DNA of 32,000 bases. Origin: Candidatus Fibrimonadaceae bacterium (GTDB lineage: Bacteria > Fibrobacterota > Fibrobacteria > Fibrobacterales > Fibrobacteraceae). The notes below the pieces were generated by a model that did no database searches, was not told the DNA's origin, and saw only the letters and a list, made by a program, of their open reading frames with translations. The stretch spans positions 1 through 32,000 of the forward strand of contig JAITUM010000172.1 of assembly GCA_031286305.1 (NCBI GenBank), written 5' to 3'. A program made the translations under genes and the position numbers. Within the stretch, counting starts at the first letter, position 1. The number at the start of each line of letters is the position of its first letter. Shown here in pieces: positions 11,513 through 21,119 of the stretch.

Positions 11513-11714
11513 CTTTTTTTGCATTTTTTTTTATTTTTTTTAATATTTTTTTTGCGCCAAGCTAGCTAGCGAGGCTCTTTTTTTTAATTTTGCGTATCAA
11601 GCTAATACACAAACAACAGCTTTTGGGCTACCTTCACAGGTAGCAAAACAACAATAAGCGCTTACAACATTACATTAGCTTTTTTTTTAAAAAAACCTTT
11701 GTCATGCAAAGCTT

Positions 11715-12668
11715 CTAGCCTCTATAGGGCTCACCGGATTTAACAACACCGAAAGCTATTTTTACTAGCCTATGCATTACAGCAGTCAAAGCTAACATTT
11801 TAGGTTTTCCTTTTTCTGTTAGCCTTTTATACATTTTTGCCATTGGGGTTCTGTTAAGCTGGATAGCACTAGAGGCGCACATAAACAAAAGACCGCGCAA
11901 ATACGGGTTGCCTGTTTTGGATATTTTGCCATTGCCTTTTATGCTTGTGCCGCTTTCAAAAATTGTTGGGTCTAAACCAATAAAAGATGTTAGCTGCTTG
12001 TGCGTTGCAAACGGTTCTAGACCTTTGCAACGGACAAGAAGCGTAGCGGCTGTTTTGGCACCTATGCCGGGTATCGTTTTCGACAGACGAAATTGCTCCG
12101 GGAAAATTTCCTTTACCAAATCGTAAAGTTCTTTTTCCAAGGCTTTTTGCTGCTCTTTGCAAATGGACTTCACGCTAGACATTGCAGCTAATGCTTTGTC
12201 GCTTTTGCCAGCTACTAGAGCGGCGGAAGTTTTCATATTGCCCGCAGACCTTTCGAGCTTGGATAGACCGGACAATAGGGAAACTATCACCATAGCCCTT
12301 GCATGTTTAAGTGGCAAAGGCTGCCAAAATTCTATCTGTGCGCTCTTGGTCTCTGCGTAGCCTGCAATGAGTCTAGCGTCCTTTTTATCCGTCTTTACCT
12401 TGTTGCCAAGAGACTGCATATAACGACGGACAAAAAGGGGGTTAAATATCCGAACAAGCGCGCCGTTTTTACACAGGAATTTAGCCATCTGGTAATGGTA
12501 ATTACCTGTTGCCTCCATTGTGTAAATAGCATTGGGCGGGGTGTTCTTTAGAAGAACGCGCCAGCCTTTGCGGTTGTTGCTGTATTTGACATCAACGCCA
12601 TTGCAATGGGCGTTAAATGTGTCTTTTGAGATGTCTATGCCAACATAGACCTTTTTCTTAACATTCAT
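11715..12668 (-). CDS. IS110-family DEDD transposase/recombinase
   Basis: Start at ATG 12668 after GAGAGG. N-terminal VYVGIDISKDTFNAH (DEDD_Tnp_IS110-type). C-terminal LSKTIPGIGAKTAATLL...FESGTSIKGNGKISKTGNPYLRGLL (Transposase_20-type). Confidence 0.9.
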   Translation of the reverse strand: MNVKKKVYVGIDISKDTFNAHCNGVDVKYSNNRKGWRVLLKNTPPNAIYTMEATGNYHYQMAKFLCKNGALVRIFNPLFVRRYMQSLGNKVKTDKKDARLIAGYAETKSAQIEFWQPLPLKHARAMVIVSLLSGLSKLERSAGNMKTSAALVAGKSDKALAAMSSVKSICKEQQKALEKELYDLVKEIFPEQFRLSKTIPGIGAKTAATLLVRCKGLEPFATHKQLTSFIGLDPTIFESGTSIKGNGKISKTGNPYLRGLLFMCASSAIQLNRTPMAKMYKRLTEKGKPKMLALTAVMHRLVKIAFGVVKSGEPYRG

Positions 12669-12865
12669 GTTAACCTCTCTGTTTAAGTGTTTCAACGCTT
12701 GCGGGGACTTAATACCTTCACTCCTATAAACGAGCGCGAAGCCCAGAGTCTCAACTCGGCAAACATCACCACAAGCGTTTCCCATCATGCCACTATCTTA
12801 TTTCGCAAGCGTAAAAGCCCAAGGGTATGGACAGTTTCAGGCATGAAGGGTAATAAGGATTATCG
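12669..12865 (-). ncRNA. Candidate IS110 bridge (seek) RNA in the upstream non-coding end
   Basis: This stretch is GC-richer than the flanking AT-rich DNA. The long-range helix 12695-12704 / 12769-12778 has one G-U pair only on the minus-sense transcript. TCATGC (12785-12790) and GCATGA (12841-12846) match the terminal repeat GTCATGC in both orientations. The ends of the RNA are not defined. Confidence 0.35.
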
Positions 12866-13131
12866 ACCCGAAATTGAAATGCTTAATGTTTTTATTTTTA
12901 GTTTTTTTTTTACTAAACTGAATGAGAGCAAAAAGCACGCCAAAATAGACAGGCGGAAAAGGGAATCGATTTTTTTTCATATTATTTTTTATTCCATGCT
13001 ACTACATAAAAAATTTTTCTATTCAGAAAACCATCTGAAAAAAACCTAGAATTTTGTCATGCTTTTTGCAAACCACTACAGGGGATATTATAAATGTTTT
13101 CAATTATTCAAAATAATGATAAATATTAAAC

Positions 13132-13177
13132 TTTTCCCTGAACTGCCCATAATAGGGTGAAGGCAGTTCAGGGAAAA
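13132..13177. promoter_or_regulatory. Perfect 16-bp stem / 14-nt loop hairpin (candidate packaging signal, complementary-strand origin or recombination site)
   Basis: ttttccctgaactgcc (13132-13147) pairs perfectly with ggcagttcagggaaaa (13162-13177). No U-run follows on either strand, so it is not a classical terminator. Confidence 0.5.
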
Positions 13178-13277
13178 ATTTTAATAGACCCGCACCGCCA
13201 ACAACGGCTACACTTTGCCGCCGATGACAAAGGCAAAGAAAACAAAAACAGTCCGAAAGGACAATAAGGAGGTCAAC

Positions 13278-13583
13278 ATGACTAAAAGGAACAAGCTAGA
13301 AATAGCACGGATAAACGCAAACCAAAGTATAGATTTTTTTCGAATGAAAATCTGTGATTTGGAAAAAATAGGAAGCATAGAACTAAGAGCAAACAATACA
13401 GGCTCGCTAGGGTATAAAAATCTATACTTTGATAACGAAGATATTGGAATGGTGCTAATGAATGTGGAAACCAACGAACCGGAAGAATACGCAAACATAC
13501 ATTTGCAATATATGCCAAATATATGCGTGTTATGCATAGCCTACGAAAAAGAAAGATTAAAAATATTAAGAAAGGAGGTGTAG
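13278..13583 (+). CDS. Hypothetical protein (101 aa), opposite orientation to the phage structural module
   Basis: ATG 13278 lies 6 nt after AAGGAGG, and the stop abuts the next ORF. No motif recognised. Confidence 0.5.
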   Translation: MTKRNKLEIARINANQSIDFFRMKICDLEKIGSIELRANNTGSLGYKNLYFDNEDIGMVLMNVETNEPEEYANIHLQYMPNICVLCIAYEKERLKILRKEV

Positions 13584-13584
13584 A

Positions 13585-13806
13585 ATGAGGATAGAGCGGA
13601 AATATAGCAGAGCCCTAGACTATTGGGATAGGGCACTAAACCACACAATGAATGGGAAAAATAAAATTGCCTTGTGCTGTGCAAAGGTGGCAGCATACTA
13701 TTTTGACTTCGTGGCGCAGAATGCCCCGGAACTGGAGGATAGCAAGAAGGCTAGAGCGTATTTTTTCCAAGTGTGCGATAGCTATGGCTTAAACTACAAG
13801 ACGTGA
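13585..13806 (+). CDS. Hypothetical protein (73 aa)
   Basis: ATG 13585 follows AAGGAGGTG and lies 2 nt after the previous stop, suggesting a coupled pair. No motif recognised. Confidence 0.45.
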   Translation: MRIERKYSRALDYWDRALNHTMNGKNKIALCCAKVAAYYFDFVAQNAPELEDSKKARAYFFQVCDSYGLNYKT

Positions 13807-13862
13807 AAAAAGCCCTCCCGCCCATGCTTCAAGATTTAACACAGGCGGGTAACAGATTTAAT

Positions 13863-19973: not shown

Positions 19974-20020
19974 ACTCGGGAATATTCCTAACACGTGCAA
20001 AATATGAAAGCAGCGAAGCA

Positions 20021-20173
20021 TTATTTGCCTACTCCACGGTTAATACCCTTAATGGCTAAACGAATACCGGCAACACCAACCGCTACAAGAATAGCAATAG
20101 GAGCAACAACAGTAAGAACACCAATAAGATCGGTCTCAGCGGAAGTTACGGCAGAAGTGATAGCACTTACCAT
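20021..20173 (-). CDS. Major coat protein (50 aa, Pf3-like, no leader peptide)
   Basis: ATG 20173 follows GAGG. Translation MVSAITSAVTSAETDLIGVLTVVAPIAILVAVGVAGIRLAIKGINRGVGK has an acidic N-terminus, hydrophobic core and basic C-terminus. It lies directly upstream of the pIII-like gene and below the ORF-track cutoff. Confidence 0.7.
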   Translation of the reverse strand: MVSAITSAVTSAETDLIGVLTVVAPIAILVAVGVAGIRLAIKGINRGVGK

Positions 20174-20182
20174 AATTATACC

Positions 20183-20341
20183 TCATACATTGTGTAATGT
20201 GCTATTATTAGGTGTTTTAGCACTGTTAGCGGAAACTCTGAAAAAAACACTATCCGCACTATCAGGAACGTCTATTACGCTGCCCACAGACCTATAGTTT
20301 AAGTCCGATTTATTTAAACATTCACCGCAGTAAAAACTCAT
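20183..20341 (-). CDS. Small phage ORF (52 aa) with N-terminal CxxC
   Basis: ATG 20341 follows GAGG and the stop is 9 nt before the coat gene. Begins MSFYCGECLNKSDLNYRSVGS. No TM segment. Confidence 0.35.
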   Translation of the reverse strand: MSFYCGECLNKSDLNYRSVGSVIDVPDSADSVFFRVSANSAKTPNNSTLHNV

Positions 20342-20471
20342 GATAACCTCACAAAATAAACACGATAATGAAACAAGGTAACGCGAGTAATAAATATTAC
20401 CTTGATTTTGTAATATTTATCCTCGCAAAAGTTGCTAACGCTAACTACGAATTGAGAAAAACGAAAACGCA

Positions 20472-20606
20472 TTACAGCACCCCCGTCTCGTTATAAAAGG
20501 ACTGCAAAATAGCACGATGACCGCAATAACGACAGTAAAAAACACCCTTGTAAGAAGGGGGATTAGTATTAGCCGTGCCGCACTTTTGACAAAAACGAGT
20601 CCGCAT
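20472..20606 (-). CDS. Zinc-ribbon-like 44-aa protein
   Basis: ATG 20606 lies 1 nt after the stop of the gV-sized gene (TAA T ATG). Translation is MRTRFCQKCGTANTNPPSYKGVFYCRYCGHRAILQSFYNETGVL (CxxC...CxxC). Preferred over the overlapping TTG-initiated track ORF 20441-20626. Confidence 0.4.
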   Translation of the reverse strand: MRTRFCQKCGTANTNPPSYKGVFYCRYCGHRAILQSFYNETGVL

Positions 20607-20607
20607 A

Positions 20608-20880
20608 TTATTTCACTGCCTCCCAATTGACAACAGGTTGGTTATTAGCGCGGACTTTGCCGTCCTTGTCGGTATAACCACGAGGAACGATACTAACAAC
20701 AGGGCGAAACTTGTCACCCTCCTTAGCGGTAAAATAAGCACTACCCCAAACATCGAAGGGAATACCCTCCAAACGCATAGCGTAAACCTGTTTAGCACCC
20801 TTAGAGGTGTTAATTGTAGAAACCTTCTCGCAAACCGCGACTTGCTGCTGAGCCTTAGGGCTGTTTTGTTCTATTGCCAT
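20608..20880 (-). CDS. Putative ssDNA-binding protein (gV-like by size and position)
   Basis: 90 aa, first gene of the module, AGGAG upstream, beta-rich and Lys/Arg-containing. No sequence motif recognised. Confidence 0.4.
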   Translation of the reverse strand: MAIEQNSPKAQQQVAVCEKVSTINTSKGAKQVYAMRLEGIPFDVWGSAYFTAKEGDKFRPVVSIVPRGYTDKDGKVRANNQPVVNWEAVK

Positions 20881-20964
20881 GATTTTCTCCTATGGTTAAA
20901 ATGGCGGTTAAAACCGCAAACCATCGAAAGAAATCAACTAAAGGAAAGAATTTTCACCTTAGGA

Positions 20965-21119
20965 GGGTATGGGGTATAGGGTATAGGCAATGCAAAAAAA
21001 CATTGTTTTTTAGCAACTCCCTTCCCGCTGGACATTTCGCTGGTGAACATCCGCAGGATGGTTAATTTAGCCGTTTATTTGTGCAGTTCCCTATACCCCA
21101 CACCCCATACCCTATACCC
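20965..21119 (+). repeat. Heptamer-flanked repeat element, copy A (intergenic, at the right edge of the prophage)
   Basis: GGGTATG GGGTATA GGGTATA (20965-20987) is inverted relative to CTATACC CCACACC CCATACC CTATACC (21089-21119). Core 21015-21061 is AACTCCCTTCCCGCTGGACATTTCGCTGGTGAACATCCGCAGGATGG. A small CAATG-N7-CATTG hairpin lies at 20988-21005. Confidence 0.8.

Follow-up and report, generated by a model that had tools for sequence, protein, structure and literature searches.

How a filamentous phage that encodes no classical integrase enters its host chromosome is the question raised by contig JAITUM010000172.1 of Candidatus Fibrimonadaceae bacterium (assembly GCA_031286305.1), of which positions 1 to 32,000 were analysed and are here called the window. 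The first-pass annotation had recognized an inovirus gene module with an IS110-type DEDD recombinase and three orphan genes on its rep side, all of which were confirmed by profile searches and open reading frame (ORF) positions. It considered two arrangements, a single element of about 9.3 kb mobilized by the recombinase, or an independent insertion sequence (IS) next to a prophage. Its statement that the phage has no integrase of its own holds in that a family profile search of the ten largest ORFs gave no match to a tyrosine or serine integrase family, but the IS110-type recombinase is here read as that integrase. We consider it highly probable that positions 11450-20963 (minus strand) represent one filamentous, inovirus-type prophage that is integrated by its IS110/IS621-type recombinase, programmed by an adjacent bridge RNA. 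The recombinase is taken to be an integration module rather than a stray IS because the adjacent guide RNA spells the host bases that border the opposite end of the phage. The recombinase family, a conserved two-loop RNA-like region, guide-junction matches in four diverged elements and the restoration of a reading frame in two of them were read directly.

The recombinase gene (11715-12668, minus strand) encodes 317 amino acids (aa) from its ATG, within a mechanical ORF that extends to 12788. The protein contains an N-terminal DEDD RuvC-like domain (DEDD_Tnp_IS110, PF01548, E=5.1e-15) and a C-terminal Tnp domain with the catalytic serine (Transposase_20, PF02371, E=1.1e-21), and its top match among solved structures is the IS621 transposase (E=1.8e-32). 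The motifs GIDISKD, MEATG, KTDKKDA and ESGTS align with GIDTAKE, IEATG, KTDTVDA and ESGSS in IS621, which places the catalytic residues at D12, E52, D94/D97 and S239. An exact protein look-up of the 317-aa sequence gave no match. IS110 elements are compact (~1.2-1.6 kb, RNA and recombinase only), and in this respect the window element differs, since it measures 9514 bp, with a complete set of inovirus genes separating the right donor from the RNA. The element thus works like an IS110 element but is not a simple IS.

The bridge RNA of IS621 has four guides (Hiraizumi 2024, PMC11208158). Its left target guide (LTG) repeats the bases of the left target (LT) and the core, its right target guide (RTG) is the complement of the core and the right target (RT), and the left and right donor guides (LDG and RDG) do the same for the joined element ends, the left donor (LD) and the right donor (RD). 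Among the relatives of the window element, the only conserved part of the region upstream of the recombinase is the ~180 nt before its ATG, and this part contains a bridge-RNA-like non-coding region with two loops (12690-12847, minus strand). In single-sequence folds, the window and the related element L086 each give two long stems interrupted by internal loops, and the sequences of the stems differ between the two. A consensus of 12 sequences comprises 22 pairs, with compensatory changes in 12 of them, located in the stems of the target loop and the inner stem of the donor loop; the outer stem of the donor loop is seen only in the single-sequence folds. The segments are arranged as in the IS621 bridge RNA, with a closing stem, a 9-nt 5' loop segment, a small hairpin and a 3' loop segment, in that order and twice. 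The recombinase gene is thus adjoined by a predicted structured RNA with two internal loops, as in the IS110 family, and this RNA is probably made as a transcript. No Rfam family matched the region at gathering score, and the single match at E<=1, a chance match, lies outside it.

The registers of the guides were transferred from IS621, and the pairing rules and the tolerance of GT, AT and TT cores were taken from PMC11208158; some pairings in the relatives were judged by eye from the printed sequence rather than scored with a tool. All four guides lie on the minus strand: the LTG CCAUACCCU at 12822-12830, the RTG at 12797-12804, the LDG UUGAGACU at 12746-12753 and the RDG UAGGAG at 12721-12726. 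Two other candidate guides were rejected. According to the folds and the consensus, the sequence AGCTTGATACGC in L086 forms the stem that closes the target loop, and GAUAGU is likewise a stem, so that the right target guide was placed in the 5 nt ahead of the conserved AAG.

The window contains three exact copies of the LTG, one in the RNA itself, one at 20972-20964 and one at 21105-21113. The copy at 20964-20972 (minus strand) comprises a host LT (CCATACC) and the core CT and matches the LTG in the same sense in 9/9 positions. It stops precisely where homology to the relatives L086, L090, L099 and L148 starts (CCTAAGG, from 20963 downwards), and the first phage bases, CCTAAG (20958-20963, minus strand), are the RD, which the same four relatives conserve at their left ends as [C/T]CTAAG. 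The RDG pairs in 6/6 positions with CT and CCTA at this junction. The third copy, CCATACCCT (21105-21113, plus strand), is an unoccupied second exact copy of the LT and the core. Both copies lie in the arms of a small host repeat, copy A, which the phage abuts on its gV side.

At the other end of the element, the alignment of element ends shows that the homology, which opens at CCTAAG, closes after ..ACTT in the relatives and TTGAGTT in the window. The conserved right end closes at CATTGAGTT (11450), and it is followed by AATCATTAAT and the ATG of rfbB at 11424. The LD would thus be a degenerate TTGAGTT (11450-11456, minus strand), where the guide predicts TTGAGACT, and the host RT would be AATCA (11445-11449, minus strand), 21 nt upstream of the rfbB ATG. 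With these ends, the element is 9514 bp long, and its right end is uncertain by ~5 nt (11450-11456). The rep-side end had been set at 11698 in the first-pass annotation, but the actual end lies ~250 nt further, at ~11450; the proposal of a single element mobilized by an IS110-type recombinase is otherwise supported by the guides and the relatives, with the ends corrected to 11450-20963. The predicted junction of the 9.5-kb circle is ...AAACATTGAGTT joined to CCTAAGGTGAAAATTC..., and the predicted empty site is ...CCCCATACCCT joined to AATCATTAATTAC.... A 9242-bp Logan contig, L001 (public run SRR14710892), is identical to the window over 11752-20993.

The guides differ among the elements, and each LTG fits its own left junction, in 9/9 positions in the window, L086 and L099 and in 8/9 in L148. 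Crossed combinations of LTG and junction between loci, which served as a control, fit in 3-5/9 positions. In L086, the homology extends from TCTAAGG (position 720) to GGTAAGACTT (10399), with AATAGCCGT just outside on the left and AGTTACC on the right. The LTG AAUAGCCGU matches the left junction in 9/9 positions, the LDG is AAGACUU, the RDG AGAAU pairs with GTTCT, and the RTG AACU pairs in 4/5 positions. Removal of the element in silico restores the frame of a Fib_succ_major domain (...GSFGSVGN-YGYWWSATE...), which then matches the paralogue NFGSAGYYGYYW. A junction at a GTT duplication was rejected, because the comparison with the paralogue shifted the junction by 3 nt. L086 also contains a second exact copy of its own LTG sequence (AATAGCCGT) in the rep gene (6487-6495), which may be due to chance or may be a self-target. 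The LTG of L099, CCCAAUCGU, matches in 9/9 positions beside CCTAAGAG, its LDG AAAACUU matches its own end AAAACTT, and its RTG forms three pairs and one wobble with the right flank. In this element too, removal in silico restores a Fib_succ_major motif (YGRLY-DW). The LTG of L148, GGAAUGCUU, matches in 8/9 positions beside CCTAAGG, and its RTG GGAGU pairs in 5/5 positions with ACTCC past the right end. Judged by eye, the RTGs of L147 and L106 pair with their own right flanks in 5/5 and 4/5 positions, respectively. The left junctions of L147 and L095 are not on their contigs; the LTGs for these are GUAAACACU and AGUAGCCGC.

The donor guides behave similarly. The relatives end in GTAA[G/A]ACTT and are matched by their own LDGs in 7-8/8 positions, and the LDG covaries with the right end of the element, AAGACU being found with AAGACTT and AAAACU with AAAACTT. 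As expected for the IS110 family, the guides are thus complementary to the ends of their own element and to its target, with a poor fit of the LDG and RTG in the window. The junctions have 1-3 nt in common and lack terminal inverted repeats and long target duplications. The cores at the left junctions are CT, GT, GT and TT in the window, L086, L099 and L148 set, and those at the right junctions are TT in 4/4. The left junction may keep the core of the target and the right junction that of the donor, which would fit an exchange of the top strand after T9, given the tolerance of GT, AT and TT cores.

The left junction of L090 is of the same type and lies within a YGRLYNW motif. L088 and L090 show no recombinase, and both contigs stop short of its expected position. 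The IMG/VR relatives L104-L110 are trimmed at gene boundaries, so that their left junctions are unreadable. In L097 (RNA at 708-885, end at 2150-2175), UAG replaces the conserved AAG after the RTG and the element ends in ..AAGACTA rather than ..ACTT; its core position 9 may thus be A, in place of the nearly invariant T of IS621. The left junction of L097 is not on the contig.

The insertion sites vary between the elements and include two Fib_succ_major motifs, the heptamer repeat in the window and a site among defence-type genes in L148. The targets are present in several copies, with two exact copies of the LT and core in the arms of copy A and paralogous Fib_succ_major motifs in the relatives. 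The flanks of the L148 prophage (1-800 and 11332-20966) encode AbiEii and T5orf172 on one side and a helicase, JetD/JetB/MksE-type (Wadjet-like) proteins and a methyltransferase on the other. In the window, the inverted heptamer arms of copy A (20964-20990 and 21087-21113) are 89% complementary. The suggestion that the phage inserted into a host repeat is correct insofar as the junction lies in a heptamer arm, but the target is this arm of copy A only and not the conserved core of the repeat family, and the relatives use Fib_succ_major motifs. The repeat itself is described further below.

The recombinase belongs to a clade whose members nearly always lie at an inovirus end. A protein search identified ~85 recombinases with 46-71% identity, each on 1-4 contigs, and their named sources are metagenome-assembled genomes of the Fibromonadaceae or Fibromonadales. 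Of the 15 distinct contexts in which the upstream DNA is long enough, 14 have the clade member at an inovirus end. This placement is found in the window, L086, L095/96, L099-101, L104, L106-L110, L146/147 and L148/149, and L102/L103 have no phage genes within 10 kb upstream. Six clade loci were picked solely on how long their contigs were, and four of the five informative ones (L095/96, L099-101, L146/147 and L148/149) show this placement; the contigs of L097/98 are too short to judge the association. The seven IMG/VR contigs (L104-L110, recombinases 49-52% identical) all have the order Zot, Rep and recombinase, and L105 represents the same element as L099. In L003/L086, the placement is the same and the Zot and recombinase proteins are 69-71% and 64% identical to those in the window. 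Over 11 elements, the identities of the recombinase and Zot are correlated (Mantel r=0.73, permutation p=4e-4), a signal that comes mostly from close pairs. By comparison, the GTDB species representatives contain 79 loci with recombinases of <=39% identity, and 0/79 have phage genes; these are ordinary distant IS110 elements and uninformative about this clade.

By analogy with IS621, recombination probably proceeds as follows. In the circular form of the phage genome, the ends would meet as the donor site LD-core-RD, with the LD (about TTGAGACT) contributed from beyond the recombinase gene and the RD (CCTAAGG) from ~80 nt ahead of the first phage gene. As in IS621, this site would pair with the donor-binding loop of the RNA, and the target-binding loop would pair with the host site CCATACC-CT in the heptamer arm of the small repeat that immediately precedes rfbB. 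An exchange at the core dinucleotide would then insert the whole 9.5-kb circle.

Several observations weigh against this interpretation. The right junction of the window cannot be placed to the nucleotide (11450-11456), the LDG fits the genomic TTGAGTT in only 5/8 positions, as though AC had been lost from the guide-matched form TTGAGACTT, and the RTG pairs with AATCA in 2/5 positions. The right flank of L095/96 pairs with its RTG in 3/5 positions by eye, with the left junction off the contig. Neither the loci of the relatives examined nor the viral_contigs collection yielded a circular LD-core-RD junction; a pattern scan of the latter gave 68 chance matches without phage or recombinase homologues, and no circular contig was found. 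An empty site of the host was not found either, as exact-protein look-ups of the flanking proC-SPOR gene matched the same sample only and those of rfbB gave no match. Two further observations concern the bond between recombinase and phage: L102/L103 (51% identity) have no phage genes within 10 kb upstream, and the recombinases of L086 and L095 are 88% identical, although their Zot proteins are only 31% identical and their Rep proteins are of different families. The latter indicates that the module, besides being inherited with its inovirus backbone, has also moved from one backbone to another.

Because the right junction fits the guides poorly, this copy may be grounded and no longer able to excise, or it may derive from a half-match insertion such as has been reported for IS621. 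This possibility, which is compatible with a guide-programmed prophage and which we rate somewhat below an even chance, takes the decay of the left donor end as a block to excision, or explains the junction as an off-target insertion. It is favoured by the mismatch between TTGAGTT and the guide, compared with 7-8/8 matches in the relatives, and by the 2/5 fit of the RT. A recent preprint (10.64898/2026.08.31.748434) reports that excision depends on recognition of the donor arms and that half-matches explain many off-target insertions. On the other hand, the recombinase has an uninterrupted ORF and retains the catalytic motifs, and the guides fit the left junction without a mismatch. The sequence at 11451-11453 may also contain a sequencing or assembly error; the two assemblies agree over 11752-20993 only.

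The independent IS proposed as an alternative would be a 1.36-kb IS110 element (~11.70-13.06 kb) beside or within a prophage that integrates by other means. The direct repeat on which this was based is real. Its left copy (13037-13062) consists of AAAAAAACCT and TTGTCATGC with AGAATT between them, its right copy (11689-11708) is AAAAAAACCTTTGTCATGC, and the two agree in 19/19 bases with one 6-nt gap (on the other strand, GCATGACAA, AATTCT and AGGTTTTTTT against GCATGACAAAGGTTTTTTT). The copies bracket exactly the guide RNA and the recombinase gene, and both the phage-free L102/L103 and the 88% identical module in two phages with dissimilar Zot proteins also speak for an IS. However, in the guide comparison no guide resembled either flank of the 1.36-kb unit, and the LTG and RDG instead fit the far end of the phage. 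The conserved right end, common to all relatives, reaches ~260 nt past the direct repeat, and the true right end of the element is ~250 nt further on. The 1.36-kb unit was rejected as a mobile element. In the loci with a readable right flank, the right end matches the LDG of the same element and is followed by unrelated host DNA, all phage-bearing loci have the order Zot, Rep and recombinase, and the Logan contig is continuous through the proposed IS boundary at 13.06 kb. With the guides naming the gV-side junction and the clade nearly always at an inovirus end, an independent IS is very unlikely, and the direct repeat is not a recombination site of this guide RNA. By eye, its right copy can be read as a short hairpin with a subsequent T run just past the recombinase stop, and the relatives have an unrelated hairpin at the same position. 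Integration by the host XerCD at a dif-like site, as in CTXphi, or by an unrecognized integrase among the unannotated ORFs, with the IS110 gene as a passenger, is more improbable still: many inoviruses without an integrase use XerCD and several ORFs in the window have no family assignment, but in four elements the guides and the junctions agree to the base, and insertion sites that differ between relatives do not fit one dif site.

Returning to the prophage integrated by its own recombinase, the conserved non-coding right end (X', 11484-11690, minus strand) extends ~260 nt past the recombinase stop. It is alignable in L086, L095, L097, L148, L102 and L147 and contains a 39-nt block (11591-11629) that is 92% identical in L086. 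Within it, a promoter-like site (TTGACG-17-TATATT, 11484-11512) agrees with the consensus in 10/12 positions and points outward, which in the chromosome is toward rfbB and in the circle toward the first phage gene. The site may drive the phage operon across the circle junction. It is located 60 nt upstream of rfbB, a dTDP-glucose 4,6-dehydratase-like gene that starts at 11424, and the prophage may now drive the sugar-nucleotide operon of rfbB. A second site, X (TTGACA-17-TATATT, 14183-14211, minus strand), agrees in 11/12 positions and precedes the module of accessory genes, bridge RNA and recombinase. The sites at 14211-14183 and 11512-11484 are the two best sigma-70-like sites in 11.4-14.3 kb and are partial duplicates of each other within a direct repeat of ~50 nt, D4 (11484-11533 and 14183-14232). 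This repeat was rejected as a pair of att sites, as it represents promoter-like regions duplicated within the element. L086 has a direct duplication of ~200 nt of its right-end region (7744-7941 and 10169-10372, 73-79% identity), so that this region is also present upstream of the accessory, RNA and recombinase module; in the window, no more than ~50 nt of it are duplicated.

The right end is also present in L102 (9760-11130) and L103, together with a guide-RNA region (the end being ..TTAAAACTT), and the LTG of L102 was not found in the nearby flank. L102/L103 look like a compact IS. That L102 shares the right end, although apparently free of phage genes, suggests that the ancestor was a compact IS with a junction promoter for the RNA, as in IS621. 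The phage genome would later have become lodged between the right donor and the RNA, with the second copy of the promoter serving the RNA module.

The gene content is that of an inovirus, with Zot, Rep, a coat protein candidate, a large adsorption protein by position and a genome within 5-12 kb. On the minus strand, the order is a 90-aa gene, four small ORFs, a protein in the pIII position, Zot, Rep, three small ORFs, ~390 nt of non-coding DNA and the recombinase, and the order of the genes is common to the window phage and the IMG/VR inovirus contigs. The first phage gene (20608-20880, minus strand) encodes 90 aa, had no match in a family profile search and is assigned to gV by position only; its homologues in L086, L090 and L105 are 35-45% identical. 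One of the four small ORFs (20021-20173, minus strand) encodes a candidate for the major coat protein of 50 aa (phrog_1646, E=2.4e-4). The large 547-aa protein next to the coat genes (18378-20021, minus strand) has homologues in L086, L088 and L090 and no match in Pfam or PHROG, and its pIII-like role in adsorption is likewise by position only. The Zot or pI-type assembly ATPase (16992-17906, minus strand) matches Pfam Zot (E=3.2e-36) and phrog_197 (E=1.3e-54), and the rolling-circle replication initiator Rep (14230-14982, minus strand) matches Pfam Rep_OBD (E=1.1e-11) and has homologues in related phages. The three orphan genes inside the element, orfC (13863-14174, minus strand), orfB (13585-13806, plus strand) and orfA (13215-13583, plus strand), have no Pfam or PHROG match. 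The orfC product has a signal-peptide-like start, and the gene resembles, as judged by eye and without alignment, the small ORF after the X-type promoter in L088. Between the divergent small ORFs and the guide-RNA region, there is an inverted repeat of 20 nt (13128-13181, 95%, 14-nt loop), which could be a terminator or an operator. No near-identical DNA was found among GenBank phages, and no tRNA was found in the window.

That copy A has relatives elsewhere in the host DNA was borne out. Its core (21015-21062, plus strand) recurs at 27501-27548 (plus strand, 81%) and, inverted, at 26596-26644 (minus strand). The family core is ~48 nt long (AACyCCCTTyCCGCT..TTCGCTGGTGAA..), and each copy is flanked by a tandem heptamer of its own (GGGTATG/A, TTGAGAG or CACTAGC), with heptamer runs at 20964-20990, 21087-21113, 26174-26207, 27476-27500 and near 26530. 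The copy at 26.6 kb lies in frame within an ORF of 697 aa, which matches the FliK C-terminus marginally (Flg_hook, 29.7 bits, cut-off 29.8).

Inoviruses that integrate by a transposase are an already known kind, represented by Nf/MDA in Neisseria and phiOH16 in Thermus, and the window element comes from a different phylum. The Neisseria Nf1-Nf4 and MDAphi phages are inoviruses of ~8 kb in which an IS110-family transposase gene occupies one prophage end (Kawai et al. 2005; PMC7058167), and they insert into the repeated dRS3 sequence with a CT motif (PMC7058167). The window inovirus is similar in that it lacks a tyrosine or serine integrase and has an IS110-type gene at its end, and its position and guides point to insertion into a repeated host sequence. 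Unlike in Neisseria, the host is Fibrobacterota-like, the targets are a heptamer arm or Fib_succ_major motifs rather than dRS3, and the guide RNA is read out explicitly. Apart from L104-L110, the recombinase is <=35% identical to the phage-borne IS110 transposases in the GenBank phage and IMG/VR collections. No Neisseria record is among the best 25 of the 31 GenBank phage matches, and those listed are <=34% identical. They include OR148969-OR148983, PP511607, PP511689 and LC210520, with IS110-type transposases of 29-34% identity, carried by twelve human-gut "Inovirus D_HF" (29-32%), two lemur-gut Dulem viruses and the Thermus phiOH16/Zuza phages, and the guide RNAs of these carriers could be read in the same way. 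The Thermus phages phiOH16, Zuza8 and Zuza27 have an IS110-type gene at the end and are thought to integrate likewise (PMC11437467). Their recombinases are 29-32% identical to that in the window, no guide analysis is reported for them, and they differ from the window phage in host and sequence and in having a replication endonuclease rather than a gV-position gene at the opposite end.

The resemblance to the IS621/IS110 bridge system (Durrant 2024; PMC11208158) includes the DEDD and serine recombinase, the two-loop RNA on its 5' side, the dinucleotide core with T at position 9, and left guides that are same-sense and right guides that are complementary. IS621 is a compact IS with the RNA in its left end, beside the circle junction, where it is transcribed from a junction promoter (PMC11208158). 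In contrast, the window element has ~8 kb of phage between the right donor and the RNA, a right end of ~260 nt with an outward promoter-like site of its own, and a second copy of the promoter region in front of the RNA module. The CTXphi-type XerCD/dif system is similar only in being used by an inovirus without a classical integrase, whereas the junctions studied here follow the complementarity of the guides, vary between relatives and involve no dif-type site. In the literature searched, we found no paper linking bridge RNA to Neisseria or to filamentous phages, and no reading of bridge-RNA guides against the ends of filamentous prophages.

For this locus, the guides decide in favour of one 9.5-kb element rather than an IS beside a phage. 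According to Roux et al. 2019 (PMC6813254), IS110 genes that are owned by the phage and those that hitch-hike cannot be separated by sequence analysis alone. Reading the guides of the adjacent bridge RNA against the prophage ends answers this problem, as it distinguishes, from sequence only, the phage's own IS110-type integrase from a hitch-hiking IS. Natural IS110 systems would thus carry ~8 kb of cargo, which bears on the cargo tolerance of bridge recombinases. It has also been reported that IS110 enzymes excise single-stranded circles (preprint 10.64898/2026.08.31.748434). If so, the recombinase could release the single-stranded DNA genome of the phage directly from the chromosome, and this would link IS110 transposition to the replication of single-stranded DNA phages, a link of which we found no description. 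More speculatively, and with considerable doubt, these elements could be natural RNA-programmed temperate phages, in which the integration specificity resides in ~14 nt of the phage bridge RNA that have been rewritten repeatedly and the recombinase could deliver the single-stranded genome. The retargeting may then have led from one to another of the Fib_succ_major motifs, the heptamer repeat and the site flanked by defence-type genes. The guides have in any case been retargeted within one phage group, which bears on how the sites of lysogeny evolve.

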